Source: an uncultured Candidatus Saccharibacteria bacterium
GTDB taxonomy: Bacteria; Patescibacteriota; Doudnabacteria; UBA920
Reading direction: 5' to 3'
Length of the DNA: 62,501 nt
Assembly (NCBI GenBank): GCA_964612745.1
Contig: CAZTCH010000002.1
Coordinates: forward strand, 99,548-162,048
The translations under genes and the position numbers were made by a program. The notes under the pieces are model-generated. The model had not been told where the DNA came from, searched no databases, and was given only the letters and a program-made list of their open reading frames with translations. The number at the start of each line of letters is the position of its first letter. Within the stretch, counting starts at the first letter, position 1. Shown here one piece after another: positions 7,547-57,671 of the stretch.

Positions 7547-8092
7547 CTATTCAGCGTACAACTCTTTATTTCGTAGACGCACCAGCGCCATATGCACTGC
7601 CTGCTCAGAATAGTGTATACGAGTAACTACCCCTTGTGTTAAGAAACCAATCATGCCCAAATCTTTGCGGAAACTTTCGTCTGCTGCATAGCCCAGTTCA
7701 ACCGCTGCGACAGCAACTTCCTTACCTTCTTGCAAAAGCTTTCGTGTGAGCTGCTGTGGGTACTCAAAACTACTAGACAGGCCAACATAAAAATCAGCAC
7801 CGTCAAAGATAGCACATGCAGTTGTATCAAAATAGCTCTCCCTACCAGCCGGCACCGTAAAAATACCCGTCTCTAGGCCCACGCCAAAATCAGCACCTAC
7901 AGCTTGCATTGCACCCTGCGCTCTATTCTTCGCCCCTAAAATTATTTCTTCCAGTGACTTTGGCTGTGCGGCCACCCCAGACTCCACGGCACAAGACTCT
8001 ACAAGCACATGCTCATATTCAGGGTATCGCGCAAGACAATTCTTAACTGCTAGAATTTTCCCTTCGTTTGTAGTCCCGATGGCAACACGCAT
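7547..8092 (-). CDS. Inosine/xanthosine triphosphatase (YjjX / DUF84 NTPase family)
   Basis: MRVAIGTTNEGKILAVKN...VESGVAAQP resembles the YjjX N-terminus and core. Confidence 0.7.
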   Translation of the reverse strand: MRVAIGTTNEGKILAVKNCLARYPEYEHVLVESCAVESGVAAQPKSLEEIILGAKNRAQGAMQAVGADFGVGLETGIFTVPAGRESYFDTTACAIFDGADFYVGLSSSFEYPQQLTRKLLQEGKEVAVAAVELGYAADESFRKDLGMIGFLTQGVVTRIHYSEQAVHMALVRLRNKELYAE

Positions 8093-8153
8093 ATATAGTC
8101 ACAATCCCCATGGCTGCACAAAGCCATACACTTTATAATCCTACAGCAACCTT

Positions 8154-8391
8154 TGGTCGGGATACTGGGAATTGAACCCAGTCTAGCCTCTTCGGCTAGC
8201 ATGCTACGCCCACCCCACTTGTCCGCCGTAGTTGTAACGGAGGCGGATGGACGGTATCCCACATTAACTTTTGGTCGGAGTACCCGGAATCGAACCGGGA
8301 CTACACACACCCCATGCGTGCGTACTACCACTATACTATACTCCGTAACCAAAAGTTAATGTGGGACGTACTACCGGTATACGATATCCCG
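8154..8391 (-). other. Interrupted tRNA-like gene enclosing tRNA-Pro (outer acceptor, D and T arms intact)
   Basis: 5' CGGGATA-TC-GTATACCGGTAGTAC-G (8391..8367). 3' CTGGG-TTCAATT-CCCAG-TATCCCG-A-CCA (8181..8154). The 7/7 acceptor pairing spans 238 nt. See findings. Confidence 0.5.
8272..8345 (-). tRNA. tRNA-Pro (anticodon GGG)
   Basis: Manual cloverleaf: CGGAGTA/TACTCCG acceptor, D arm GTAT-AGTGGTA-GTAC, anticodon arm CACGC-ATGGGGT-GTGTG, T arm CCCGG-TTCGATT-CCGGG, A73, encoded CCA. 74 nt. Confidence 0.9.
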
Positions 8392-8557
8392 ATACCCAAA
8401 GGACACTGTAAGAAAACCAAAACCCTAAGCTCACCCCTGTCATAAACTCCCGCTTGCAAAACTGCCTCTTCTACTTCTTCTGTTTCTTCTAACTCTTCTA
8501 TTTCTTTATTCTTTCTCGGAACTAGTTACTCGTTACTAGCCACTAGCTACTGCTTCC

Positions 8558-9586
8558 CTACACCACAAAATACGGACCATCAGGATTGCTCGCCTGAAGC
8601 TTTGCCTGCTTTTGCTCTGCCATTTTATCAATAATATCTTGCAGGTCTTCGTCGCTAAAAAACTCAATGGTGATTTTACCACCACGACCTTGGCGTTGTA
8701 CTTTTACTTGCGCCCCCAAACGACTTCGCAATTCTGTTTCTATTGCCATGAGCTTTGGATCTGGTGCCGCTGCATCCACCGAACGTTTCTGGGAAAATTC
8801 TCGGGCCTTTGCTTCTACTTGTCGGACATTCAAATTCTGATCCAAGATAGCACGGAACAAAGCAAGTAATTTTTCTGGCTCTGCAACACTCAACAGCGCT
8901 CGGGCGTGTCCTTCGGTAATCCTATTTTCAATAACTGCTCGTTGCACTTCTACAGGCAAATTCAACAAGCGCAGCGTATTCGCCACCGTTGGTCTGGACT
9001 TTCCAACTTTTTGCGCAACTTGCTCTTGAGTGAGACTAAACGTCTTAATAAGTCGGTCGTATGCCCGTGCCTCTTCGATAGCGTTCAGCTCACGACGTTG
9101 AATATTTTCAATTAACGCAACTTCTAACTTGGTCTGGTCTTCGAGTTGTTTTTTTACAATTGCAGGGATAGTCACCATGCCTGCTAAAATAGATGCGCGA
9201 AAACGACGTTCACCCACGACAATTTCATACCCCGAAGGCGACTCGGTAACTACCAGTGGTTGGATTACCCCATGCTCGCGGATAGATTTTGCTAACTCTT
9301 TTAGCCCCTCTGGATCAAAGATTTTTCGGGGCTGGTACGGGTTCGGAACAATTTTAGAAAGTTCAATTTCTTGTATCTGTGCGTCTGCATACGAAACACG
9401 CTCAGGAGCTGTCTCTACAACACGTGGTGACTCCGCATACAATTCTTCAATAGGCAACGCAGCAACGGTCGGGATGGGCGCCATATACCCCACAATAGAC
9501 GCAAATACAGCATCGTCCAAAACAGGCTCTGTATAAGCAGGCGGGTTTACACTATGCGCTGGTTGGCCAATTATCGCATCGAGCAT
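8558..9586 (-). CDS. parB: Chromosome partitioning protein ParB/Spo0J
   Basis: ParB boxes IVPNPYQPRK, HGVIQPLVV, GERRFRA, plus an HTH. ATG at 9586 was chosen because the longer track ORF overlaps tRNA-Leu. Confidence 0.9.
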   Translation of the reverse strand: MLDAIIGQPAHSVNPPAYTEPVLDDAVFASIVGYMAPIPTVAALPIEELYAESPRVVETAPERVSYADAQIQEIELSKIVPNPYQPRKIFDPEGLKELAKSIREHGVIQPLVVTESPSGYEIVVGERRFRASILAGMVTIPAIVKKQLEDQTKLEVALIENIQRRELNAIEEARAYDRLIKTFSLTQEQVAQKVGKSRPTVANTLRLLNLPVEVQRAVIENRITEGHARALLSVAEPEKLLALFRAILDQNLNVRQVEAKAREFSQKRSVDAAAPDPKLMAIETELRSRLGAQVKVQRQGRGGKITIEFFSDEDLQDIIDKMAEQKQAKLQASNPDGPYFVV

Positions 9587-9660
9587 ATTTGAAAAGTGCT
9601 GGGACCAAAGGTCCAGCAGGTAAAGTAAGACAAAAAGAGTACACTGTACTCCCATACATA

Positions 9661-9744
9661 TGGTGGCCGAGGAGGGAGTCGAACCCTCATGGGTTTCCCC
9701 GCGCGATTTTGAGTCGCGTGCGTCTGCCATTCCGCCACTCGGCC
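9661..9744 (-). tRNA. tRNA-Leu (anticodon CAA), class II
   Basis: GGCCGAG/CTCGGCC acceptor, anticodon arm CGCGA-CTCAAAA-TCGCG, long variable arm, T arm GAGGG-TTCGACT-CCCTC, encoded CCA. 84 nt. A hairpin plus T-run follows. Confidence 0.9.
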
Positions 9745-14825: not shown

Positions 14826-17666
14826 TTACACCACAAAGTTAATCAGTCTGTTCGGAACAAAGATTGTTTTGCGCACTGCCACACCAGCCAATGCCTTACT
14901 CACTTTTTCTGAGGCAAACACCAACTCAGTTGTTTCTGCTTCAGAAAGACCGACAGGAAGAGACAACTTTTCTTTTAATTTACCATTTACCTGCACAATA
15001 AATTCGATGGTTGCTTCGGTAATTTTCTTGGCGTCAAATTTTGGCCATGGCTCGTGTTGCAACGATTTATTTCCACCAATATGCGCGTACAACTCTTCGG
15101 CAATATGTGGTGCAAATGGGTACAACACTGTCAAAAATGCTTTAATGGTTTTCACACTTACCTGCTCTTCTTTCACTTCATTGTGAAATTCCATCAGCGC
15201 AGAAATACATGTATTAAACCGCTGTGCTTCTATGTCTTCTCCAACTTTTTTAATCAGTTTGTTAATCGCCCGCTCTGCACGTTCCGAATCTTTACCCTTT
15301 GCCTGCAACACTCCTTGGGTCTGCACCCAACCCCATGCACGCTCCAAGAACCTGCGCACGCCAACTGCGCCTTTATCATTCCACGCAACCTGCGCTTCAT
15401 GTGGCCCCAAGAATAACTCGTACATACGTGCGGTATCTGCCCCAAACTGTTTTACAATTTCGTCTGGGTTAACCACATTGCCACGAGACTTGGACATCTT
15501 CTCTCCGTCCGCAGCTAAAATAATCCCGTGAGGTACACGCTTGGTATATGGTTCTTTTGTTGTTACTAATTTTTTGTCGTACAAAAACAAATTCCAGAAC
15601 CGTGAGTACAACAAATGCAGAGTAGTATGCTCCATGCCACCAAAGTAAATATCTACAGGCGTCCAACGTTTCAGCTTTGCTTTATCTGCAAATGCTTTCT
15701 TATTTTTTGGGTCTGCATAGCGAAGCCAGTACCAAGAACTCCCTGCCCACTGTGGCATGGTGTTCGTTTCGCGCTTGGCAGGCCCCTTACACGTTGGACA
15801 CTTTGTGTTCACCCATGCACTAATTGCGGCCAAAGGAGATTCACCTGTTCCCGTTGGTTCGTACTTTTTGACTGGTGGAAGTGTGAGCGGTAACTCTTTT
15901 TCTGGTACAGGCACAATACCACATGCTGCACAGTGCACAATTGGGATTGGCTCACCCCAATATCGCTGCCGACTAAACAACCAGTCCCGAAGTTTATATT
16001 GCACGGTGCTCTTTCCGTATTGTGCCGCCATCTGAGGAAGAGCATCTTCACTATAGCTACCGGTGTGCTCCCCAGAATTTACAAGTAGCCCAGACCCACT
16101 ATAAACAGAGTTATTTAGCAAATCTAATGCTTGCTGATGAGAAGCTGCAGTTAAAAAGGATTTTAGCTCCTCTTTAGAAAGCCAAAGTAATTCATGCTTG
16201 TTTTGTTCTTCAGCCGATACGTCTACCCGCTCAGAATTCTGTAACTCCACATAATACGTAGGAGCATGACCAAAACGATTAACTTTTTTGGGTTCGTGAT
16301 AATACTTACTATGTATAACACCCAAGCTACTTATAATCTTTGCATTCTTAAAACCCGTTTCTTCTAGTATTTCTTTGTAAACAGTTTCCTCAGGAGTCAT
16401 GCCGTCTTCAATCCCCCCCGTAAGAAAAGTGCCCCACCCAGCGCTCGGCCAGCGCAGAGCCATATAAATGTCTTTTTCCCAATGCTTAATAATAGCAATG
16501 ATTCCATTACTATCTTGAACAGGCTCATGCTCTCTAAATGTTGCCGAGCCAGTGGTTTGAACAAGCAGCGGCTCTATGACTTGTTTGATTGGCAAATGAA
16601 ACTTTAATGCAAACACAAAGTCACGCTCATCGTGTGCTGGCACAGCCATGATGGCGCCGGTACCATACCCACCTAATACATAGTCAGCCACCCAAACAGG
16701 TACCTGTTCTCCTGTCGCAGGGTTGATTGCTTTAATGCCTTGTAACTCTACGCCCGTTTTTTCTTTAGTGGCATCCGTACGCTTCATTTCATCTTTCGCT
16801 TTTGCCTGCTCCACATACATCTGCACCTGGTCCCAATTTGCAATCTGCAATTTGCAATCAGCAATTATCTTGTGCTCTGGAGCAACCACTAAATACGTCG
16901 CCCCAAAAATAGTATCTGGACGAGTGGTAAATACTGTAATAGATGATTTTGAATTGTGAATTGAAAATACAATTTCTGCCCCCACAGACTTCCCAATCCA
17001 GTTCTCCTGCTGCAGCTTAACCATTTCCGGCCACTCGGGTAATTCTTTTAAGCCAGCCAAAAGTTTTTCGGCATATTCAGTGATTTTTAAATACCACTGG
17101 CGCATCTCACGTTTTTCTACCAAGGTACCACAGCGCTCACACGCACCGTTAATGACTTCTTCGTTTGCCAATCCAGTTTTGTCTTTCGGACACCAATTAA
17201 TTGGCGCAGTCGCTTCGTAGGCAAGACCTGCTTTGTAGAGTTGCAAAAATATCCACTGTGTCCATTTGTAGTACTCGGGATCTGTGGTGTCTACCACACG
17301 ATTCCAGTCAAAGCTATACCCAAGAGAATTAATTTGTTTTACAAAGTTACTAATGTTTTTTGCAGTGGATTTTTTTGGCTGTACTCCAGTTTTAATTGCG
17401 TAGTTTTCTGCAGGTAACCCAAAAGCGTCCCAACCAATTGGGAACAATACTTCTTTGCCTTGTAGGCGCCAATATCTACTGGTCACGTCACCAGCGGTAT
17501 ATCCACGCATGTGCCCCATGTGAAGTCCCGCACCAGAAGGGTATGGAAATTCAACCAAAATAAACTTTTTTGGTTTTCTAGATTTATCGGATGCTGCAAA
17601 AGTTTTCTTTGCTTGCCAATACTTTTGCCACTTCGCTTCTATTGCTTTGGGGTTGTATCGTTTCAT
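14826..17666 (-). CDS. leuS: Leucyl-tRNA synthetase with an inserted Nudix-like domain
   Basis: HMGH and KMSKS motifs. CP1 editing motifs TTRPDTIFGATY and GTGAIMAVPAHDERD. An extra ~150 aa carries a Nudix-box-like sequence at residues 417-439. Confidence 0.95.
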   Translation of the reverse strand: MKRYNPKAIEAKWQKYWQAKKTFAASDKSRKPKKFILVEFPYPSGAGLHMGHMRGYTAGDVTSRYWRLQGKEVLFPIGWDAFGLPAENYAIKTGVQPKKSTAKNISNFVKQINSLGYSFDWNRVVDTTDPEYYKWTQWIFLQLYKAGLAYEATAPINWCPKDKTGLANEEVINGACERCGTLVEKREMRQWYLKITEYAEKLLAGLKELPEWPEMVKLQQENWIGKSVGAEIVFSIHNSKSSITVFTTRPDTIFGATYLVVAPEHKIIADCKLQIANWDQVQMYVEQAKAKDEMKRTDATKEKTGVELQGIKAINPATGEQVPVWVADYVLGGYGTGAIMAVPAHDERDFVFALKFHLPIKQVIEPLLVQTTGSATFREHEPVQDSNGIIAIIKHWEKDIYMALRWPSAGWGTFLTGGIEDGMTPEETVYKEILEETGFKNAKIISSLGVIHSKYYHEPKKVNRFGHAPTYYVELQNSERVDVSAEEQNKHELLWLSKEELKSFLTAASHQQALDLLNNSVYSGSGLLVNSGEHTGSYSEDALPQMAAQYGKSTVQYKLRDWLFSRQRYWGEPIPIVHCAACGIVPVPEKELPLTLPPVKKYEPTGTGESPLAAISAWVNTKCPTCKGPAKRETNTMPQWAGSSWYWLRYADPKNKKAFADKAKLKRWTPVDIYFGGMEHTTLHLLYSRFWNLFLYDKKLVTTKEPYTKRVPHGIILAADGEKMSKSRGNVVNPDEIVKQFGADTARMYELFLGPHEAQVAWNDKGAVGVRRFLERAWGWVQTQGVLQAKGKDSERAERAINKLIKKVGEDIEAQRFNTCISALMEFHNEVKEEQVSVKTIKAFLTVLYPFAPHIAEELYAHIGGNKSLQHEPWPKFDAKKITEATIEFIVQVNGKLKEKLSLPVGLSEAETTELVFASEKVSKALAGVAVRKTIFVPNRLINFVV

Positions 17667-35895: not shown

Positions 35896-35935
35896 AAAGG
35901 GTAACCCTTTCACAGCGAAAGGGTTACCCTTTTTT
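35896..35935. repeat. REP hairpin, 5' side of RAYT-2 (overlaps photolyase stop)
   Basis: AAAAGGGTAACCCTTTC-ACAGC-GAAAGGGTTACCCTTTT. Confidence 0.85.
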
Positions 35936-37324
35936 ATAGGTATCTATATATTTTTGTACATCAAACTTAGTCTTTGCGCCACCGTAAGACATGTAACGAA
36001 TCTTTCCAAAAATAGGTTTCGTAAACCACGCCCTGTCATGCACTCCGCCAATGCTCCACGCAATGCCGACATATCCATTCGGGTCTCTGCCATCAAGCGA
36101 GTACCTGTCGTTCAAATATATTGCAACGCGCATAGCTGCAGAAACGGTCTTCGTCCACTCTAAAATCTTTTTAGCCCAATACATGCGCATATACCCATGC
36201 ATTTTCCCAGTCTGTACGAGTTGTAATTGCGCGGCGTTCCATAACTCATCGTGCGTCGCGCCCTGCTCAAATTGCGCCCGTGTGTAAACATGTTCGCGCG
36301 CATCTCCCGCATGCTCCTGCATATTTTTTTTCGCCCACTCAGGAAAGCCAGCTGGTGTATCGTAGTGAGCGTTGTAAAAGCAAAAATTATCAGACAACTC
36401 GCGCCGCACCACCAGCTCTTCCACAAACGCCGCTACAGATGCACGCAAACCGAGTTCATCCGGATACTTCCGCAGCGCTGCTTCCAAAGACATACCCGTT
36501 GCTTCTAACACTTCACGTACCACAGTCGCTGCCGAAATGTGACCAAAGTGCAGATAAGGCGACAAGCCTGACTGCGCATCTTTAGTTGGGTCATTGCGGT
36601 CACTCGCGTATGTCTCGAGCCTTTGTGCAATAAATGTTTTCAAGTGCTGTCGGGCAGCCTTCTCCCCTGCACGCGCCCAATCCACAGCCGGTACCGAAGT
36701 GTCCAAAGTTAAGCGTGCACGTACTTTTTTCCAATCCACTGGAGCGGTAGCTACTAACATATCTTTGTGCTGTGCCCGCAATGGAGGTACACTTTCCTCC
36801 AAAAACTTTGGCAATACACGATGCAATTTCGGTCGTAACGTATATGCACCAAACTCCTGCTTCTGACTTGCGCACCACACAGGCACAATATTGTGCGCAT
36901 CTACTTCATGCACAGGAACACTCACCTTTTCTAGAATAGCTTCTTCCCAAGAACGGAACACACGAAGTGGGTTCTGCTCAAGAACCAATGCAGATGCGTC
37001 CACCTTGTGCACAAACTGTGGTATTTCTTCCTCTGGACTACCGACAAGAAAATGAAATCCAATATGGTGTAGTCGCAGCACGGCTTCTACCTCCAATAAC
37101 CCCGCAAGCATAAAATCAACTACACGCTCTGTTCCGTGAAGGAATTTTGGGCGCAAACAAAATACAACACAGACCGCTACACCAAGCCGGCGTGCTTCTG
37201 CAATGGCATGTGCTAGTGCCCAGTTGTCATGTGCACGCTGGTCACGACTCATCCAGTACACAACCGGGCCAGCACTATCCCCAACTTCTACGGTATTCAG
37301 TTGTCGTACACGTTCGGCAAGCAT
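35924..37324 (-). CDS. Deoxyribodipyrimidine photolyase, class II-like
   Basis: 466 aa. Photolyase/FAD-binding features (SPYLHFGHIS, WAKKILEW, DPNGY). Confidence 0.8.
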   Translation of the reverse strand: MLAERVRQLNTVEVGDSAGPVVYWMSRDQRAHDNWALAHAIAEARRLGVAVCVVFCLRPKFLHGTERVVDFMLAGLLEVEAVLRLHHIGFHFLVGSPEEEIPQFVHKVDASALVLEQNPLRVFRSWEEAILEKVSVPVHEVDAHNIVPVWCASQKQEFGAYTLRPKLHRVLPKFLEESVPPLRAQHKDMLVATAPVDWKKVRARLTLDTSVPAVDWARAGEKAARQHLKTFIAQRLETYASDRNDPTKDAQSGLSPYLHFGHISAATVVREVLEATGMSLEAALRKYPDELGLRASVAAFVEELVVRRELSDNFCFYNAHYDTPAGFPEWAKKNMQEHAGDAREHVYTRAQFEQGATHDELWNAAQLQLVQTGKMHGYMRMYWAKKILEWTKTVSAAMRVAIYLNDRYSLDGRDPNGYVGIAWSIGGVHDRAWFTKPIFGKIRYMSYGGAKTKFDVQKYIDTYKKG

Positions 37325-40213: not shown

Positions 40214-41716
40214 CTACAAATGTTCCAGCGGCTCTGCTTGGTTTGTGCCAAGCAAGCGTTTTGCAAGTAACTCTGCAGAGATTAAACAGATAGGCATACC
40301 AATCCCTGGGTTTGTCCCTGCTCCTACATAGTACAAATTCGCCACTTTTTTGCTCACGTTATTTGGCCGAAGGAATACACTTTGTCTCAATGTGTGCGCC
40401 AACCCCAATGCCGTGCCTTTGTAGCTGTTATAATCTGCTGCAAAATCTTTTACACAGTAATCTTTTCGGTATTCCACTCGCGAGCGCAAATTGGAAATGC
40501 CCATTTCAGCACCTGCCCAGTCAAGCAGTTTGTTACCATATTCGGTGAGAAATTCTGGCGTATACTCAAGCCCTGAAGCAATTGGCGCAAGCACAAATAA
40601 ATTTTCTTTGCCTGCAGGAGCCACTGTTGGGTCCGTAACACTTGGCGCACATATATAGAGCGAGGGCTTCTCAGGAAACTTTGGTGAGTCAAAAATATCT
40701 CCGAAGTTTGCTTTCCAGTCACGAGCAAAAATAAGGTTGTGGTGGGTAAGTTCAGGTACACGATCGCGCACGCCAAGATACATAATAAATGCAGAAGGAG
40801 CAAGAGTGCGCTTGTCCCAATACCGAGGGCTTCGCTCTCGCTCTGAGGTTTGCAATAACTTGCTTTCGGTATGCTCCATGTCGGCGTTAGACACAACTAT
40901 ATCGGCAAAGAGTTCTTCGCCACTTGCCAAACGAACTCCAGTAGCAACGCCATTGGTCGTTAAGATTTTTTCGACAGGAACGCTGGTACGATGGGCCACC
41001 CCAAACTCAGCACCAATTTTTACGAGGGCTTTAATCACTTCGTAAATACCTCCATCGGGGTAGAAGACTCCCATATTAAAATCTATATGGTTCATAATAG
41101 AGTACAGCGCAGGGGTGTTATACGGTGATCCACCCAAGAACACTAACTGATACTGCAAGATTTTCTGGATTCGCTCATCTTTAAAATGCCCACGGACAAA
41201 CCGGTCCATAGACAACAACAGTTTTGGACTCAACCTTGCTTTTGTTGCCCTAACATCTACTAAATCCCACGCAGAATCGTAGTTGCGGTACATGAACAAC
41301 TCTTTGGCGACATCGTACGCTTCTTCTGCCTTCGCAAGATACTCTATAAATTTTTTTCCAGCGCCGACCTCAAAGCTTTCAAACAACGCCGCCACCTTTT
41401 CGGGGTCCGCCGACAAATCTACATGCTCCCCTGTTCCTTCAAAAAAAATACGATAGCTCACCGGCAAAGGCACCAAGTGAATGTAGTCAGATACCTTTTT
41501 CCCAAGCAAACTAAAATAGTGCTCGAACACATCTGGCATTAAATACCACGATGGCCCTTTATCGAACGTGTATCCAGCCTCTTGAATGAGTCCTGCGCGT
41601 CCACCTAAATAATCGTTTTTTTCTAACACCGTTACGCTGTAACCCATTTTCGCAAGCAGGTTAGCAGCGCCCAAACCACCAATTCCTGAACCAATAATAA
41701 TTGCTTTTTTATTCAT
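40214..41716 (-). CDS. crtI: Phytoene desaturase family
   Basis: KAIIIGSGIGGLGAANLLAKMGYSVTVLEKNDYLGGRAG dinucleotide fold. CrtI-like C-terminal YYVGAGTNPGIGMP. Confidence 0.85.
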   Translation of the reverse strand: MNKKAIIIGSGIGGLGAANLLAKMGYSVTVLEKNDYLGGRAGLIQEAGYTFDKGPSWYLMPDVFEHYFSLLGKKVSDYIHLVPLPVSYRIFFEGTGEHVDLSADPEKVAALFESFEVGAGKKFIEYLAKAEEAYDVAKELFMYRNYDSAWDLVDVRATKARLSPKLLLSMDRFVRGHFKDERIQKILQYQLVFLGGSPYNTPALYSIMNHIDFNMGVFYPDGGIYEVIKALVKIGAEFGVAHRTSVPVEKILTTNGVATGVRLASGEELFADIVVSNADMEHTESKLLQTSERERSPRYWDKRTLAPSAFIMYLGVRDRVPELTHHNLIFARDWKANFGDIFDSPKFPEKPSLYICAPSVTDPTVAPAGKENLFVLAPIASGLEYTPEFLTEYGNKLLDWAGAEMGISNLRSRVEYRKDYCVKDFAADYNSYKGTALGLAHTLRQSVFLRPNNVSKKVANLYYVGAGTNPGIGMPICLISAELLAKRLLGTNQAEPLEHL

Positions 41717-41746
41717 AGTACACACACTACTGCATAAGACTAAAAT

Positions 41747-42613
41747 CTACACCGTCCCAAACCGTACCCGAACTAACAGCCAGAGTTTTTCTAAAAACGA
41801 AGTAGAAACTCGACCCGCAAACGGATTACAATCTTGTTGCTCTAACTTTGTAAGAATACGCGCATACAACACACTTGCCATCTGGTACGCAAATCTCCCT
41901 CGAGCATCAAGCAATGGCAAACACTTGTTTCCTTCATCGTATAACTGCCATGCTCGGGCAATTTGAAATTGCATAAACTTACGAAATTGTGGAGACCAAC
42001 GCGCTTGTGCAATATCTTCTACCGACAACCCAAATTGCGCAAGCTCATCCTGTGGTACATATATCCGACCTCGTTCGGTGTAATCTTTTTCAATGTCTCG
42101 TAAAAAATTAGTCAGCTGCATGGCATACCCGAGGACCTTTGCGTATTCCAGAGCGCGCGCATCCTGAAAACCAATTACCAATGCCATCATGTACCCCACC
42201 ACTCCAGCGGAGCCATACATATACCCCTCTAAATCTGCGTAGGTTGCGTATTGCTTCGTATCAATGTCCATCGCCATCGACGCGAGGAATGCGTCACCGT
42301 AGGCAACTGGAACCTGCACCCGAGCAAAAGTATCTGCAATCGCCATCATGACTGGCTTTGTACTTTCCCCCGCAAGTGCTTGTTTCCACTCTGTGGTATA
42401 CGCATCCAACTGCTTCCTGAGCTCTTCAGAACTCGCCTCGGGCTGCTCATCGACAATATCATCTGGGATTCGGAAAAAAGCATACAAGGCCCATGTGGAG
42501 CGTTTTTTCCAGACCTCACCAAAAAAACTCGTGGCAAAATAGTAGCTTTTCCCATGGTGCTGCATTATTTTTCTACACGCCTCATACCCTTCCTGCAATT
42601 GTGTGCTTATCAT
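41747..42613 (-). CDS. crtB: Phytoene synthase
   Basis: Squalene/phytoene synthase signatures: YMYGSAGVVGYMM, the Asp-rich RIPDDIVD region, and QLTNFLRDIEKD. Confidence 0.85.
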   Translation of the reverse strand: MISTQLQEGYEACRKIMQHHGKSYYFATSFFGEVWKKRSTWALYAFFRIPDDIVDEQPEASSEELRKQLDAYTTEWKQALAGESTKPVMMAIADTFARVQVPVAYGDAFLASMAMDIDTKQYATYADLEGYMYGSAGVVGYMMALVIGFQDARALEYAKVLGYAMQLTNFLRDIEKDYTERGRIYVPQDELAQFGLSVEDIAQARWSPQFRKFMQFQIARAWQLYDEGNKCLPLLDARGRFAYQMASVLYARILTKLEQQDCNPFAGRVSTSFLEKLWLLVRVRFGTV

Positions 42614-42625
42614 ATATAAAAATAA

Positions 42626-43678
42626 TTACGAGGACCGATGTTCAATGGTGTCAATAAAAGACAACCAGACACCTTGCAAATTTTTTGCAACTGAACTTGC
42701 CTGCAACAGCGTTCTACTTTTTGCAAATAGTTTTCCTGCGGTCTCGTGCGCATAGGCAAGTGCGCCAGACTCTGCAAATAGTTGCGTAATCTGTTCGGCA
42801 GCCGCAAGCGCTTCTGGTTTGCCAAAATACTGGCGAAGTTGTTTTGCATAGACTGGCTTCGCTTGCGTAAAAACAAAATTGGACAAATACGTATGTTGAC
42901 CTTCTTGTACGTCGACACAAGCAGTTTTACCCGTACCCGCTACCACATCGAGCATATCGTCTTGAATTTGAAACGCAAGCCCCAACGCCTCACCAAACTC
43001 TTTAGCAAAGGCATCGTGTGTCACGCGCCCAACTGCCAACCGAGCACCAACGGCTATTGGCCCCGAAAAACTATACCGTGCTGTTTTTAAAATATGTTTC
43101 CGTTTGACCATCTCCAGTGGCACAACGCGCTGTGTGGTAAGATCTATGTCCAGCATTTCTCCGACTATAACTTCGTCTACCATACGTCTGTACGCTTCAC
43201 ACGCCCGCCTACGCCCTACCGACTGTACGCCAGAACCCTGCATCATTTCTTGTGACCACGCAAACAATAAGTCGCCCACCAACAGCGCTTGTCCGTTGCT
43301 AATGTGTGACAGGTCACCAATCCGTTTGTGGGAACGGAGAATTGTCTCTGTGTAGATCTGCGTAGTAGGTTTTCCGTGCCGAAGCATGCCTCTATCTACT
43401 ATGTCGTCATGCGCCAACGCAAACAGATGCAGCAACTCTAACCCAACGCCTATCTCTTGGATGTCTTGTCGTTTTTTTCCGCCAAATGACTCGTACGCAA
43501 GCTGCGCAATATATGGCCTGACCCGCTTTCCACCCGCAAGCGCAATGGTCTGTGCATGGGTAATAATCTGCGGTAATACTGTTTCTGTGCCTAACTCGGA
43601 ATATACTTTTAAACGCGAAGCGAAAAAACCACTCAAACGAGTATTGAATTGTTTCTGAAATTGTTGCAATGAAATCAT
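42626..43678 (-). CDS. Polyprenyl diphosphate synthase (GGPP synthase-like)
   Basis: FARM LAHDDIVD and SARM FQIQDDMLD. Confidence 0.85.
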   Translation of the reverse strand: MISLQQFQKQFNTRLSGFFASRLKVYSELGTETVLPQIITHAQTIALAGGKRVRPYIAQLAYESFGGKKRQDIQEIGVGLELLHLFALAHDDIVDRGMLRHGKPTTQIYTETILRSHKRIGDLSHISNGQALLVGDLLFAWSQEMMQGSGVQSVGRRRACEAYRRMVDEVIVGEMLDIDLTTQRVVPLEMVKRKHILKTARYSFSGPIAVGARLAVGRVTHDAFAKEFGEALGLAFQIQDDMLDVVAGTGKTACVDVQEGQHTYLSNFVFTQAKPVYAKQLRQYFGKPEALAAAEQITQLFAESGALAYAHETAGKLFAKSRTLLQASSVAKNLQGVWLSFIDTIEHRSS

Positions 43679-43938: not shown

Positions 43939-44135
43939 GGTCTCGTAGCTCAATAACTAAATGTAACTCGCTTGATGGCTCCGTAGCTCAGCTGGATAGA
44001 GCGTCAGCTTGCGGAGCTGAAGGTCGCAGGTTCAAATCCTGCCGGAGTCACCAGACGAGTAACATTTAGTTTTACGATAGAGCGGTCCGATGCACATCGG
44101 ACAGGTCGCAGGTTCAAATCCTGCCGAGATCACCA
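43939..44135 (+). other. Interrupted tRNA-like gene enclosing tRNA-Arg(GCG)
   Basis: 5' GGTCTCG-TA-GCTC-AAT. 3' TTACGATA-GAGC-G-GTCCG-ATGCACAT-CGGAC-AGGTC-GCAGG-TTCAAAT-CCTGC-CGAGATC-A-CCA. Acceptor pairs 7/7 (one G-U). The anticodon loop is 8 nt. See findings. Confidence 0.5.
43977..44053 (+). tRNA. tRNA-Arg (anticodon GCG)
   Basis: GGCTCCG/CGGAGTC acceptor, D arm GCTC-AGCTGGATA-GAGC, anticodon arm TCAGC-TTGCGGA-GCTGA, T arm GCAGG-TTCAAAT-CCTGC, encoded CCA. 77 nt. Confidence 0.9.
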
Positions 44136-56119: not shown

Positions 56120-56194
56120 GGTGCCCGTAGCTCAATGGTAGAGCACCGCTCTGTGGCAGCGGCTACGCGGGTCCGATTCCCGTCGGGCACCCCA
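56120..56194 (+). tRNA. tRNA-His (anticodon GTG) with encoded G-1
   Basis: G-1 pairs with C73. Acceptor GTGCCCG/CGGGCAC, anticodon loop CTGTGGC, T arm GCGGG-TCCGATT-CCCGT, encoded CCA. Confidence 0.9.
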
Positions 56195-56196
56195 TC

Positions 56197-56228
56197 AAAA
56201 ACACACTGGTTTTAACCAGTGTGTTTTT
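56197..56228 (+). terminator. Terminator after tRNA-His
   Basis: AAAAACACACTGGTT-TTA-AACCAGTGTGTTTTT. Confidence 0.8.
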
Positions 56229-56321
56229 GTTATCTCTAGCAACTAACGAAGGAGTCCTCCGTATTCGTAGTAACAAAAGGTACCTGACACCTTTTCTTTA
56301 CTCCTAGTTACTAAAAATTAT

Positions 56322-57245
56322 TTATAAGTTTGGACGCAATTGTCCAGACTGGCGAGCCGAAAGCACTCCAAATGGAACAAGAGCTGCATCTGCATCGTTC
56401 GCTGGTACCACATCTTCAAAAGAAAAACCCCAAGAATAAAACACCTCAGGAGACGGGAAAGATACATACCCACCAGCCAAAACATATAGCACCGTACCGC
56501 CTTGATTGATTAACGTTCCCGATCGATGCTGGGAACGAGGGTCATCGATATGAGCACCTGACTGCTGCAAAAATGACACATCTCCTGTAAGCGCTCGATT
56601 AAATTTGTATCCTAAGCCCTTAAACGCACGTTCCGATGTAAACCCAACTTTCCCACCGTCGGTTATTAAATAGCATGTGTTACGATCTACACCGCGATCT
56701 GAGCATAGCACCTTTCCATCGGCTGGTGGGGTAAACTGTATTTGCATCAGTAGCAAATCTGCACTGTTTGCCTCTACCACATTTGAAAAACTATTAAATC
56801 CGTAAGATAAAAAAGCACCTGCGGAAGTGTACGCACTTCTTTGATACTGATTATTAATAAACCAAATAGTACCATCTGGTGTACGGACATTTGTCCCAGG
56901 GGCATGAGGCAGCTCCCCCACAGACAAATACACGGTTATGTTGCTATTATCTATACTGCTCACGGACATGTACGCCGTGCTATAATTTCTCGTCTGTCCG
57001 TTTGTGTAAATGGCAGTGTAAGTCCCAAAGGGGTGGTGGTATACAATATATGCCCTATCAACTTCTACCGCCTGATATTCAATATAAATAGGATAATCCC
57101 CTACTTGCACAGTTTCATGCAGCGCGATTTCAAATGACTGGTTAATAGAAACCTGTCTGCGCCCATTGAACGCTGCAAGCTCATGTACACTCGTGGCGAC
57201 ATACACAAACGCCACAACCATCAATACTGCTAAATATTTTTTCAC
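56322..57245 (-). CDS. Secreted protein with C-terminal ~55-aa repeats shared with the giant FN3 protein
   Basis: Signal peptide MKKYLAVLMVVAFVYVATS. Modules such as GTLINQGGTVLYVLAGGYVSFPSPEVFYSWGFSFEDVVPANDADAALVP. Confidence 0.6.
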   Translation of the reverse strand: MKKYLAVLMVVAFVYVATSVHELAAFNGRRQVSINQSFEIALHETVQVGDYPIYIEYQAVEVDRAYIVYHHPFGTYTAIYTNGQTRNYSTAYMSVSSIDNSNITVYLSVGELPHAPGTNVRTPDGTIWFINNQYQRSAYTSAGAFLSYGFNSFSNVVEANSADLLLMQIQFTPPADGKVLCSDRGVDRNTCYLITDGGKVGFTSERAFKGLGYKFNRALTGDVSFLQQSGAHIDDPRSQHRSGTLINQGGTVLYVLAGGYVSFPSPEVFYSWGFSFEDVVPANDADAALVPFGVLSARQSGQLRPNL

Positions 57246-57321
57246 GGATTTTCTCTCTTTAATTACCCTTATAATACCACACAGACACGAAAAGGTGTTA
57301 GATGTATTTCTTTGGATTGCA

Positions 57322-57365
57322 CTGTAGCAGAGTAATCACGGGTTCGATCCCCGTTAGGCACCCCA
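57322..57365 (+). pseudogene. 3' fragment of a tRNA-His-like gene
   Basis: CTGTAGCAG..TAATC-ACGGG-TTCGATC-CCCGT-TAGGCAC-C-CCA aligns to the anticodon-loop-to-CCA part of tRNA-His. No 5' half. Followed by a copy of the terminator (57368-57398). Confidence 0.6.
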
Positions 57366-57671
57366 TCAAAAACACACTGGTTTGAACCAGTGTGTTTTAT
57401 TATCTCTAGCAACTACCGAAGGAGTCTGCCGTATTCGTAGTTATAATAAGGTACCTGACACTTTTTCTTTACAATTTGGAGCCTTTAAGCCCACCAATAT
57501 TTTGCACCGAGTATCTTCTTGTTGAAGATTACTAAAAAATACTCTGCCGGAAAGAATACCAACCAGCACTCTGATTTTAGAGTAACGCGGGACGAACCAC
57601 CTAGTAAAGAAAAGGTGTCAGGTAAAGAAAAGGTGTCAGGTACCTTTTCTATTCAAAACAAATAGGCGCAA

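Follow-up and report, generated by a model that had tools for sequence, protein, structure and literature searches.

A tRNA-Pro gene was found nested inside the remains of a second tRNA-Pro gene in a 62.5-kb stretch of DNA (the window, by which we mean the whole stretch analysed), and we consider it most probable, at about 0.6, that this arrangement is the scar of a selfish element that left a replacement tRNA behind. The canonical tRNA-Pro(GGG) at 8345..8272 on the minus strand is enclosed by a perfect 19-bp stem, outside which lie two parts of the second tRNA. The window encodes ParB, QueA, LeuRS, MetRS, PNPase, SHMT, PBP1 and UppP and is thus cellular chromosome; a phage origin was rejected, with no meaningful match among 50,697 phage records. 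The elements of the locus, all on the minus strand, are listed below in the direction of reading.

8396..8402 (-), leader arm CCTTTGG of the outer gene, which pairs with the trailer CCAAAGG (direct reading)
8367..8391 (-), outer tRNA-Pro(GGG) positions 1-25/26: acceptor 5' strand, D arm and G26
8254..8366 (-), insertion 1, 113 nt, between G26 and C27, with no counterpart at the L004 site; its order is 5' arm 8366..8348 (19 nt), TA, inner tRNA, 3' arm 8275..8257, TAC
8272..8345 (-), inner tRNA-Pro(GGG), canonical (ARAGORN and Rfam RF00005)
8248..8253 (-), outer anticodon-stem 5' strand CGTCC and A32, with a C-to-T change relative to L004 that gives a G.U pair
8218..8247 (-), insertion 2, 30 nt, in the outer anticodon loop after A32: hairpin TCCGCC-14 nt-GGCGGA and CAAG
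8204..8217 (-), outer U33, GGG anticodon, G37, U38, stem 3' strand GGGCG and variable-loop start TAG
8183..8203 (-), insertion 3, 21 nt, in the outer variable loop: CATG and hairpin CTAGCC-GAAGA-GGCTAG
8154..8182 (-), outer variable-loop end, T arm, acceptor 3' strand, A73 and CCA

An inverted-repeat search showed that the stem arms (8257-8275 / 8348-8366) are complementary at 19/19 positions; the flanking repeat described in an earlier, sequence-only reading of this DNA is therefore perfect as claimed, with a length of 19 bp and not 17. The 3' arm starts at, and overlaps, the A73-CCA of the inner tRNA, in agreement with that reading, and insertion 1 ends in a 3-nt 3' extension (TAC) to the 19-bp duplex. 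The sequence-only reading had also taken TCCCA/TGGGA for the outer anticodon stem and the inner tRNA for its anticodon loop, which was wrong: the insertion lies between G26 and C27, and the outer anticodon arm is kept downstream, GGG anticodon included, as CGTCC-A, the 30-nt insertion and TGGGGT-GGGCG (8253..8204). The outer variable loop is present as TAG, the 21-nt hairpin and AC, and the 75 nt formerly considered unassignable are fully assigned to this anticodon arm and variable loop, with one hairpin in each. The 7-bp leader/trailer stem CCTTTGG/CCAAAGG is present as described, surrounded by an imperfect, longer inverted repeat (8139-8156/8396-8413), and the same leader and trailer flank the intact gene of the relative L004. 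The hairpin pattern of insertion 2 occurs once in the window, against 0.02 occurrences expected by chance. Folding of the locus, which had been proposed as a check, gave a 266-nt structure that retains all of these helices (-123.5 kcal/mol, z = -7.1). In an independent sample (L081, SRR12762304) the 3' part (8154..8182) is identical, which argues against a one-off assembly artefact; this contig contains the two hairpin insertions together with their junction to the 3' stem arm, at which it ends exactly. A metagenome pattern scan for the resident-type 3' half returned 6 loci only, and the variable-loop hairpin of the window was seen in 0/6.

Sequence comparisons show that the outer molecule is the genus's resident tRNA-Pro(GGG) gene with three insertions, and not the undescribed RNA architecture for which it had been taken. 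An uninterrupted tRNA-Pro(GGG) occupies the same site in L004, L001 and L007, which supports the last of the four possibilities in the earlier reading, a host tRNA killed by an insertion with a tRNA in it. Synteny with L004 extends to both flanks, with ParB upstream and a DUF84 NTPase downstream, its alignment stops exactly at 8367 and restarts at ~8188, and both L004 and L007 carry a plain gene between ParB and the downstream genes. In-silico deletion of the 113-, 30- and 21-nt insertions leaves 74 nt that match the genes of L004, L001 and L007 at 73/74 positions, the sole mismatch to the L004 tRNA being C28T. The parts outside the insertions, which had been read as tRNA halves, are 100% identical to the ends of the intact tRNA-Pro(GGG) of these relatives: 8391..8367 corresponds to positions 1-25 (L004, L001 and L007), and 8182..8154 to the 3' part (positions ~43/46-74). 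The internal part 8204..8217 likewise matches positions 32-45 at 100%. ARAGORN called the insertion-free gene as tRNA-Pro(GGG), and neither ARAGORN nor Rfam called the outer gene as a contiguous tRNA unless all three insertions were deleted. Deletion of insertion 1 alone led ARAGORN, in intron mode, to a spurious 'tRNA-Arg(ccg) with 30-nt intron', so that a hairpin-bearing remnant can pass for an intron-containing tRNA. Against a divergence of ~11% in the flanks, the outer exons show a single difference from L004 in 74 positions (P = 0.002).

The inner tRNA was confirmed by ARAGORN as tRNA-Pro(GGG) and by Rfam at 57.3 bits, against a gathering threshold of 29 for RF00005; read from its letters, all four helices are paired, with C1-G72 and A73. 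It is presumably a functional gene, and we infer that it is the only functional copy. The two copies have the same anticodon (GGG) and are identical at 56/74 positions, and the nearest relative of the inner copy (L016) matches it at 65/74; the acceptor-stem differences of the inner copy are compensatory and all helices are kept. An identical native piece next to an apparently foreign inserted piece is thus the signature seen at the Pro locus of the window.

Outer copies among the relatives are intact, decaying or partly deleted. The decay of outer halves, which the sequence-only reading had named as a refutation of its own view, was seen in L017, L027, L010 and L020: the outer T stem is broken in L017, the outer 3' part is gone in its sister L027, and the outer copy of L010 has no anticodon arm. 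Essential parts are missing from the outer copies of L003, L010, L017, L020, L027 and L089. In L029, the outer 3' part has 100% identity, over 57 nt, with the functional tRNA of L020, L026 and L028, the inner copy is divergent and has a long flanking inverted repeat, and three successive 3' fragments are found. Nested copies with long flanking inverted repeats were observed in the window, L001, L017 and L029, and most plain tRNA-Pro genes of the relatives have no long stem. That leader/trailer stems are a trait of all tRNA genes of the clade is partly true, as short ones occur at the Pro gene of L004 and the Leu gene of the window; the long ones accompany nested copies. The 19-bp stems of the window and L001 differ by one compensatory change; in L001 the stem also flanks a different tRNA body, and no simple single-insertion history fits. 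Insertion positions vary among loci (D-loop, 26/27, anticodon loop and T-loop), and nearly all of them, in the window and in relatives, are loops or junctions of the cloverleaf; those of L029 and L101 follow G10.

The nesting recurs at 43.9 kb, as had been noticed before, where a tRNA-Arg(GCG) is placed in the D-loop of an outer copy. This locus is the same kind of scar as that at 8.2 kb, and its elements are as follows.

43939..44135 (+), dead outer tRNA-Arg-like copy: GGTCTCG TA GCTC AATAA, the insert, TTTTACGATA GAGC G, then the hairpin
43977..44053 (+), inner tRNA-Arg(GCG), canonical (ARAGORN; Rfam 71 bits)
44085-44102 (+), hairpin GTCCGAT-GCAC-ATCGGAC replacing the outer Arg anticodon arm

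The stem around the inner tRNA-Arg has 14 bp with one mismatch (43957-43970 / 44056-44069). The outer copy has no anticodon, its anticodon arm being replaced by an unrelated hairpin, 3' of which follow a T arm that is the same as the inner one and then CGAGATC-A-CCA; ARAGORN found no tRNA in the outer copy minus the insert. The 3' portion of an uninterrupted tRNA-Arg(GCG), with the same 3' acceptor strand and trailer as the outer copy, was identified in L082, a low-coverage contig that starts in the D-loop, with the insertion site itself outside its coverage. In more distant relatives the synteny with the tRNA-Arg pair is lost, and an exact-protein look-up of the neighbour of this locus gave no record, so the case for the second locus leans mainly on L082. 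Altogether, 2/5 tRNA genes of the window (Pro and Arg) contain a nested copy, and a displaced 3' fragment lies at a third (His).

To which element such scars might belong is indicated by small GIY-YIG ORFs at the tRNA genes of relatives. These ORFs encode 85-90 aa, comprise the catalytic domain only and are of the UPF0213 type (Pfam PF01541, E = 7e-15; among solved structures, the UPF0213 proteins 1zg2 and 1ywl come nearest); PHROGs and NCBIfam gave no informative name. They were found with an intact tRNA on one side and its dead fragments on the other for Pro in L010, L003 (frameshifted), L020 and L089, for Leu in L008, L016 and L041, for Gln in L096 and L097, and for Val in L105 and L106. 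L101 (Pro) is a weaker case, with a 10-nt tRNA-like start and a double hairpin read by eye, and in L087 the ORF adjoins a tRNA-Arg at which no tRNA fragment was identified. When homologues were picked blind to their context, 4/4 adjoined a tRNA gene. In the dead tRNA-Gln copy beside the GIY-YIG ORFs of L096, a hairpin replaces the anticodon arm, as in the outer Arg copy of the window.

No GIY-YIG ORF was found in the 62.5-kb window, and its link to the ORF-bearing loci comes from the hairpins. Hairpin 2 is common to the window and the GIY-YIG-associated remnant of L003, at the same tRNA position, and between the two the stems and the adjacent tRNA part are conserved far above the loop (Fisher P = 0.002). 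The conservation of these stems and of the outer exons fits recent invasion or refreshing by homing, and fits continued selection on the outer copy as well. The loop of hairpin 3, GARGA, is typical of hairpins beside GIY-YIG ORFs, with the same class in L003, L010 and L101; in a search with six loop pentamers and their reverse complements, so that both strands were covered, the hairpin of insertion 3 was the sole member of this class in the window. Similar double hairpins are also free-standing in intergenic DNA of L010. The ORF-bearing cases have no long repeats and the nested cases with long repeats (window, L001, L017 and L029) have no ORF; the two classes are linked by L003 and by the shared hairpins.

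Several other identities were rejected. The covariance-model search that had been proposed for this locus gave, on 8050-8500, no Rfam match beyond the inner tRNA, even at E = 10. An archaeal-type intron or split tRNA does not fit, as no two 3-nt bulges separated by 4 bp are present by inspection or in the MFE fold. None of the 36 ORFs scanned in this 62.5-kb part of the genome encodes a splicing endonuclease or RNA ligase. For a group I intron, a search up to E = 10 matched no intron family, and the anticodon-loop insertion has 30 nt where 200 nt or more are required. ARAGORN found no tmRNA, and the best Rfam tmRNA score was 6.6 bits against a threshold of 84. An inverted-repeat transposon or MITE was rejected because the arms differ between cassettes, those of the window Pro, window Arg, L017 and L029 being unrelated at their outer ends, and because the junctions show no consistent target duplication. 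An integrase island would not match an insert of 113 nt without ORF, in which the whole tRNA and not one end of it is duplicated.

We therefore propose, as the most likely reading, that the resident single-copy tRNA-Pro(GGG) of this CPR bacterium, which resembles Doudnabacteria, was inactivated by three insertions at unpaired positions of the cloverleaf: one follows G26, one follows A32 within the anticodon loop, and one lies in the variable loop. The inner tRNA-Pro, which brings a 19-bp leader/trailer stem, was probably gained by horizontal transfer and would now supply the function. The cause would most likely be the selfish-element family seen in the relatives, with a small GIY-YIG ORF of the UPF0213 type as the putative agent of the insertions, GC-rich hairpin modules and a spare copy, partial or complete, of the target tRNA; the window would carry ORF-less derivatives of it at two loci (Pro at 8.2 kb and Arg at 43.9 kb). 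Because its leader has only ~21 nt, transcription of the inner cassette presumably starts at the resident promoter and runs through the outer 5' part. A promoter scan gave one consensus match, inside the cassette and at chance level. The long stem probably insulates the folding of the inner tRNA and may permit RNase III, RNase P and 3' trimming to free it, with the outer pieces as by-products; the RNase III-type processing stem raised in the sequence-only reading is thus a reasonable, though putative, account of this release. Retro-insertion of a precursor cut by RNase III was considered as the origin of insertion 1.

Neutral accidents could also have produced such a locus: a duplicate tRNA-Pro arises by ordinary recombination or duplication, the resident gene dies, and unrelated hairpin repeats land in it, with no dedicated element or nuclease. 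The window itself has no nuclease ORF, similar double hairpins stand free in intergenic DNA of L010, and the inverted repeats of separate cassettes are unrelated in sequence, all of which speak for this scenario. We regard it as possible but doubtful, since the same architecture is seen in at least 4, possibly 5, tRNA species of several CPR lineages, mostly with a GIY-YIG ORF inside, and since two of the five tRNA genes of the window have a nested copy and a third has a displaced 3' fragment. Three insertions relative to L004 with one exon difference also point to one acquired block and not to slow accumulation. An assembly or binning artefact, in which two tRNA-Pro alleles from co-assembled strains were joined as a chimera, is extremely unlikely. 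The source is a metagenome assembly, the L081 contig breaks exactly at the 3' arm, and L082, with the intact Arg allele, is truncated; nevertheless, no stretch of identity between the inner and outer copies is long enough to mislead an assembler, neither the perfect 19-bp repeat nor the hairpins are tRNA sequence, L081 reproduces the hairpin insertions and the 3'-arm junction from another sample, and analogous structures are found in many independent assemblies.

Two further readings give the outer molecule a function. If the insertions, inner tRNA included, were removed from the RNA and the exons rejoined, one transcript would yield two tRNA-Pro(GGG): the inner tRNA would be freed by RNase P and 3' processing and the two hairpins excised, which would imply a so far unknown protein-dependent tRNA splicing pathway in CPR bacteria and would make the hairpin modules of CPR tRNA genes mobile bacterial tRNA introns. 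Such intron-like removal would agree with the perfect tRNA, anticodon intact, that deletion restores, with insertion sites that nearly all lie at loops or junctions (in the window, all of them), with outer exons conserved far above the flanks, and with hairpin-2 stems conserved between the window and L003 around a diverged loop. It is nonetheless unlikely. No protein-dependent machinery that splices tRNAs is known from bacteria. Sequence and fold show plain hairpins at the junctions and no bulge-helix-bulge geometry, and models of group I/II introns and of ribozymes gave no match even at E = 10. A second product with the same anticodon would bring no obvious gain, the outer copies of six relatives lack essential parts, and that of the Arg locus has no anticodon; on these grounds, the intron or functional split tRNA envisaged in the sequence-only reading received no positive support. 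Alternatively, the outer halves might stay paired after release of the inner tRNA and act as a stable regulatory or decoy RNA, in keeping with the very stable predicted fold (z = -7.1), the single compensatory stem change that separates the window from L001, and the intact outer acceptor stem and T arm. This two-piece RNA is very unlikely, because the architecture is not conserved (the gene is plain in same-genus L004 and L007), other lineages have other insertion positions or incomplete outer copies, and no Rfam family matches; as the outer parts are those of the resident gene, no further function is required to account for their integrity.

A scar with a spare part would explain the 'tRNA inside a tRNA' and remove a false lead on split or intron-bearing bacterial tRNAs. 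It would indicate an apparently undescribed family of selfish elements, widespread among the CPR lineages sampled, which occupies single-copy tRNA genes of very small genomes and spares the host through the replacement it carries; full-text literature searches found no description of such a tRNA-targeting GIY-YIG/hairpin family. For the large uncharacterised UPF0213-type family, the association suggests a function as a nuclease acting on tRNA-gene DNA. The elements would also offer a mechanism for the horizontal turnover of tRNA genes, which may explain the high diversity of compensatory stem variants among the tRNAs of close CPR relatives. Standard tRNA finders report the inner gene only, so that nested loci are invisible in current annotations, and such loci can break assemblies, as at the end of the L081 contig.

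Among known systems, integrative elements encode an integrase, span kilobases and duplicate a 3' (or 5') segment of a tRNA gene at a fixed crossover site. As in the window, tRNA genes are the targets, the copy on the element preserves function and remnants accumulate; the insert of the window, by contrast, has 113 nt and no recombinase, and insertion positions vary. RNase III cuts leader/trailer stems around rRNA and some tRNA precursors, which likewise form a long perfect duplex just 5' and 3' of the mature RNA. The duplex of the window includes A73-CCA, its cleavage is putative, and the long stem is lacking from most plain tRNA-Pro genes of the relatives. The disrupted tRNAs of archaea include multi-intron, split and tri-split forms, with transposing introns in Thermoproteales (PMC4390854; PMC10714607), and share with the window several short hairpin-like insertions at non-canonical loop positions, a normal tRNA after in-silico removal and long complementary leaders. 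They need a bulge-helix-bulge and a splicing endonuclease, and no copy exists besides the interrupted gene, whereas the window is from a bacterium, has no such motif and contains an intact inner copy with the same anticodon, and outer copies decay in its relatives.

Closer parallels are found among homing endonucleases. SegB of phage T4 is a free-standing GIY-YIG homing endonuclease in a tRNA gene cluster, and its homing moves the nuclease gene together with flanking tRNA sequence (PMC2330249). The CPR ORFs resemble it as GIY-YIG nuclease genes among tRNA genes; SegB is larger, phage-encoded and located between tRNA genes, while the CPR ORFs have 85-90 aa with the catalytic domain only, and nested or fragmented tRNA copies, as at the CPR loci, are not described for it. 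In the mORF gene hybrids of fungal mitochondria (Allomyces macrogynus atp6; Glomus atp6, atp9, cox2 and nad3), an endonuclease element enters an essential gene and brings a foreign part-copy that preserves function, the native part staying adjacent (PMC3630166). There the native part is identical or nearly so to the closest relative and the inserted copy is divergent, which points to horizontal transfer (PMC3630166). The window shows the same identity pattern (outer 73/74, inner 56/74), as does L029, and empty-site alleles occur in the close relatives L004 and L007. An endonuclease ORF in or adjacent to the gene is absent from the window and present in L010, L003 (frameshifted), L020, L089, L101, L008, L016, L041, L096, L097 and L105. 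The differences are that the target is a bacterial chromosomal tRNA gene and not a mitochondrial protein gene, that the old gene of the window encloses a complete gene copy instead of a C-terminal duplicate, that the window has no ORF, that GC-rich hairpin modules accompany the element and that cleavage is putative here. The elements of the window and of other CPR genomes are thus best read as a variant of the homing-endonuclease elements that form gene hybrids.

Five tRNAs were called in the window by ARAGORN and Rfam, and one of them, a tRNA-Pro(GGG), lies inside a second tRNA gene. The following features make up this locus and a second nested locus, locus 2.

Features of the two nested tRNA loci
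8272-8345, minus strand: inner tRNA-Pro(GGG), ARAGORN and Rfam (57.3 bits)
8257-8275 / 8348-8366: perfect 19-bp inverted repeat, 3' arm starting at A73-CCA of the inner tRNA
Insertion 1, 113 nt, after G26 of the outer tRNA: stem arms and inner tRNA
Insertion 2, 30 nt, anticodon loop, after A32: hairpin TCCGCC-14 nt-GGCGGA plus CAAG
Insertion 3, 21 nt, variable loop: CATG plus hairpin CTAGCC-GAAGA-GGCTAG
43939-44135, plus strand: nested tRNA-Arg (locus 2), canonical inner tRNA-Arg(GCG) in the outer D-loop
43977-44053, plus strand: inner tRNA-Arg(GCG), 71 bits, flanking 14-bp stem with one mismatch

The canonical inner tRNA-Pro at 8345..8272, first recognized by a sequence-only reading, was borne out by both programs, and the inverted repeat around it pairs perfectly as that reading had it, the length being 19 bp and not 17 nt. 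The 266-nt region folds with every proposed helix (-123.5 kcal/mol, z = -7.1 against shuffles). Beyond the inner tRNA, no tmRNA, intron, ribozyme or further Rfam family matched the region even at E = 10. The outer halves are genuine tRNA parts. When the three insertions were removed in silico, the outer sequence was called as tRNA-Pro(GGG) by ARAGORN and equalled the tRNA of three loci from relatives (L004, L001 and L007) save for a single C-to-T substitution, by which a G-C pair becomes G.U. Because the outer tRNA is an L004-type gene with three insertions, the anatomy first proposed changes in two respects: the inner tRNA entered after G26 and does not replace the outer anticodon loop, and the 75 nt considered unassignable comprise the anticodon arm of the outer tRNA, which still has its GGG anticodon, and the variable loop, each carrying one hairpin. 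Judged by this comparison, the outer tRNA is the resident gene, intact in L004, plus three insertions. The inner tRNA is identical to the outer copy at 56 of 74 positions and to its nearest relative (L016) at 65 of 74, and all its helices are kept through compensatory changes (acceptor stem CGGAGTA/TACTCCG versus the outer CGGGATA/TATCCCG); rather than a duplicate in decay, it looks like a functional gene that belongs to another lineage. In a second sample (SRR12762304), assembled independently, contig L081 carries an identical 3' part with both hairpins and stops at the 3' arm of the stem. The nested arrangement is real and well beyond chance.

The 62.5-kb window is cellular chromosome and not phage; it encodes ParB, QueA, LeuRS, MetRS, PNPase, SHMT, a class A PBP, UppP and carotenoid enzymes, and a phage database search with it returned nothing relevant. 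The closest relatives of the ParB adjoining the nested locus (56-99% amino-acid identity) are in MAGs labelled Candidatus Doudnabacteria, Patescibacteria or 'Saccharibacteria', which places the source organism in the Candidate Phyla Radiation (CPR). The longest ParB ORF (8558-9730) overlaps tRNA-Leu(CAA) (9661-9744, minus strand), so the true start must lie further downstream; this tRNA itself has ~12 bp of leader/trailer complementarity, including G.U pairs, overlapping its CCA. The LeuRS (14826-17666, minus strand) carries a NUDIX hydrolase domain at residues ~400-512, directly past the editing domain. A photolyase and carotenoid-type set (phytoene desaturase-like oxidase, squalene/phytoene synthase and polyprenyl synthetase; 35924-37324 and 40214-43678, minus strand) is unexpected in a reduced CPR genome. 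Genes are mostly on the minus strand, and GC skew is uniformly and strongly negative (about -0.1 to -0.2) across ~58 kb, fading only in the final few kb, near the gene for a protein of 1573 aa with many fibronectin type III repeats (57704-62425).

For comparison we retrieved 34 Doudnabacteria-like ParB loci, of which 24 had a tRNA-Pro(GGG) that could be located. The ParB of L004 is 99% identical to that of the window as protein while the DNA is only about 88-91% identical, indicating a sister species and not the same strain. At its orthologous site, with leader CCTTTGGgtat and trailer aaggttgctg as in the window, a 74-nt tRNA-Pro(GGG) is uninterrupted, and the pairwise alignment stops at 8367 and restarts at ~8188. 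A second 'fresh' nest was found in L029, with a divergent inner tRNA-Pro and a 15-18-bp flanking inverted repeat in the outer D-arm region; over its 57-nt 3' part this outer copy matches the functional gene of L020, L026 and L028 at 100%, and two more 3' fragments follow. Elsewhere the outer copy has a broken T stem (L017), has lost its 3' part (L027, sister of L017) or is without an anticodon arm (L010), and intact genes are followed by a 3' fragment (L020 and L092) or preceded by a 5' fragment (L089). Such a series from fresh to decaying to partly deleted argues against a functional outer molecule and is the outcome that the sequence-only reading had itself named as evidence for a disrupted pseudogene. 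The nesting is not a conserved architecture. Across L001-L034 and L090-L092, close genomes carry many tRNA-Pro(GGG) variants whose anticodon, T and acceptor stems differ in a compensatory way, with at least six anticodon-stem versions, an unusual diversity for one isoacceptor; horizontal replacement turnover, or escape from a sequence-specific nuclease, would fit this diversity.

The same nesting had also been claimed at 43.9 kb, and there the tRNA-Arg(GCG) indeed sits inside an outer copy. The T arm of this copy is identical to that of the inner tRNA, the acceptor stem differs by compensatory changes, the anticodon arm is replaced by a hairpin (GTCCGAT-GCAC-ATCGGAC), and an 8-bp leader/trailer pairing (CCCGTATC/GATACGGG) closes the outer copy; with the insert removed, ARAGORN called no tRNA. 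L082, a short, low-coverage, 5'-truncated contig that begins inside the D-loop of tRNA-Arg(GCG) and has a neighbour gene 97% identical, carries this gene uninterrupted from D-loop to 3' end; its acceptor strand and trailer are of the outer type. A separate repeat involves tRNA-His(GTG), whose 3' part from anticodon loop to CCA, together with its terminator hairpin and ~75 nt further, occurs at 56148-56301 and 57319-57472 (plus strand, ~1.17 kb apart, 84-96% identity), with a 307-aa ORF of no confident Pfam family between (56322-57245, minus strand). Here too, a tRNA gene seems to have taken up an insertion, with the displaced part duplicated. Of the five tRNA genes of the window, three (Pro, Arg and His) have a nested copy or displaced-part repeat.

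In L010, the inner tRNA is separated from the outer 3' remnant by an 88-aa ORF that encodes a GIY-YIG catalytic domain (Pfam E = 7e-15); among solved structures, those of the UPF0213 proteins BH0048 and EF2693 come nearest to it. A frameshifted copy lies immediately upstream of the inner tRNA in L003, and L020 has a degenerate one.

GIY-YIG/tRNA loci in relatives
L010, 12300-12840
L003, 11124-11621
L089, ~500-1000
L008, 9250-9900
L016, 9240-9650
L041, 950-1500
L096
L097, 1360-2000
L101, 1440-1830
L105/L106

Double-hairpin modules
L010, 17269-17305 and 20072-20100
L003, 11506-11538
L101, 1451-1484
L097, 1441-1457

A profile search of all fetched loci found GIY-YIG ORFs solely beside tRNA genes, namely Pro (L010, L003, L020, L089), Leu(CAA) (L008, L016, L041) and Arg(TCT) (L087, L088), and none in the window. 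In L008, L016, L041 and L089 the order is a tRNA 5' fragment with a GC-rich hairpin at its broken end, the ORF, and an intact tRNA. Four further homologues from other CPR lineages, picked blind to genomic context, all directly adjoin a tRNA gene (Gln(TTG), Gln(CTG), Pro(GGG) and Val(CAC)). In three of the four contexts (L096, L097 and L105/L106) the initial 19-25 nt of the adjoining tRNA recur nearby as an exact copy, and L101 has only a 10-nt tRNA-like start, read by eye. Overall, these tRNA-side ORFs are 85-91 aa, catalytic-domain-only and of UPF0213 type, and they occur beside Pro, Leu, Gln, Val and Arg tRNAs in several CPR lineages. Most of these loci, counted outside L087/L088 and L095, also hold GC-rich hairpins and dead pieces of the tRNA in question, with hairpins also present in L097 and L101; in the dead tRNA-Gln copy of L096, a hairpin very similar to that of locus 2 (TCCCGAT-TGCT-ATCGGGA) replaces the anticodon arm.

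A double hairpin, (T/C)nGCC-TCnTC-GGCnn followed by CCCGCC-GARGA-GGCGGG, recurs in L003, L010, L097 and L101, and it behaves as a dispersed module, since similar ones stand free in L010. Hairpin 3 of the window (insertion 3) has the GAAGA loop of this module on a different stem and is the sole hairpin of its class in 62.5 kb, and hairpin 2 (insertion 2) has the same position and identical stems in the GIY-YIG-associated remnant of L003. Double hairpins such as GTCGCC-TCATC-GGCGAC then CCGCC-AGAGAA-GGCGG, with conserved loop classes (TCATC/GATGA, GARGA/TCYTC) and varying stems, were seen within tRNA remnants and also on their own between genes, and they behave as a small structured repeat that is dispersed in the genome. 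Taking all cases together, nearly all insertion points fall where the cloverleaf is unpaired (D-loop, 26/27 junction, anticodon loop, variable loop and T-loop); L029 and L101 are instead broken after G10, where the D stem begins.

The best explanation of the nested tRNA-Pro is that the resident tRNA gene was disrupted and carries its own replacement. It would be one case of a family of tRNA-targeting selfish elements in CPR bacteria that is apparently undescribed, and the window loci would be ORF-less derivatives of this family; exotic interpretations are not supported. A resident single-copy tRNA gene would be broken, and the spare copy on the incoming DNA would keep the cell alive. With a leader of only ~21 nt, the inner cassette probably depends on the resident promoter for its expression. 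The 19-bp stem, which differs from that of L001 by one compensatory pair and one G-C to G.U change, plausibly insulates folding of the inner tRNA from the homologous outer halves and may offer an RNase III entry point. The history involves more than one simple insertion, because in L001 the same stem encloses a resident-type tRNA instead of a divergent one and in L029 one trailer arm stands behind two different tRNA bodies; perhaps the tRNA body undergoes gene conversion within a persistent stem. Two further points fit this reading less neatly: the window has no nuclease ORF, and long-inverted-repeat cassettes and ORF-bearing elements overlap only through L003 and the common hairpins.

Two conservation patterns bear on whether the insertions are instead removed from the outer tRNA at the RNA level. 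The outer exons differ from L004 at 1 of 74 positions while the adjoining flanks are ~11% diverged (P = 0.002), and between the window and L003 the hairpin-2 stems with the adjacent tRNA part differ at 2 of 55 nt, compared with 6 of 18 nt for loop and linker (P = 0.002). Recent invasion explains the former, and for the latter we tentatively suggest that every homing event copies the exons anew. Both patterns would also be expected if the outer copy were under selection, and for this reason we keep a small share of probability for removal at the RNA level. We consider it very improbable, as the nested tRNA-Pro locus has no splicing motif or ribozyme, inner and outer tRNA-Pro share one anticodon, outer copies are incomplete in most relatives, and that of locus 2 has no anticodon. 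The disrupted gene with its own replacement thus remains our reading, and its main interest is the element family that the locus exposes.

Full-text searches on nested or disrupted bacterial tRNA genes, and on CPR/Patescibacteria tRNA with intron, homing endonuclease or GIY-YIG, turned up no account of such an arrangement or of GIY-YIG ORFs beside CPR tRNA genes. Disrupted tRNA genes have been described in archaea (PMC4390854), and CPR rRNA introns with homing endonucleases are known (summarized in PMC10714607). T4 SegB, a GIY-YIG homing endonuclease within a tRNA cluster (PMC2330249), is one likeness. The other is the mORF 'gene hybrids' of fungal mitochondria, in which an endonuclease element enters atp6, cox2 and other genes with a foreign copy of the displaced part (PMC3630166). 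With these hybrids the tRNA loci share a native part nearly identical to that of near relatives, a foreign inserted copy, empty sites in close relatives and an endonuclease ORF in some copies, and it is this match that leads us to read the window loci as probable ORF-less derivatives of a CPR family of elements that target tRNA genes.
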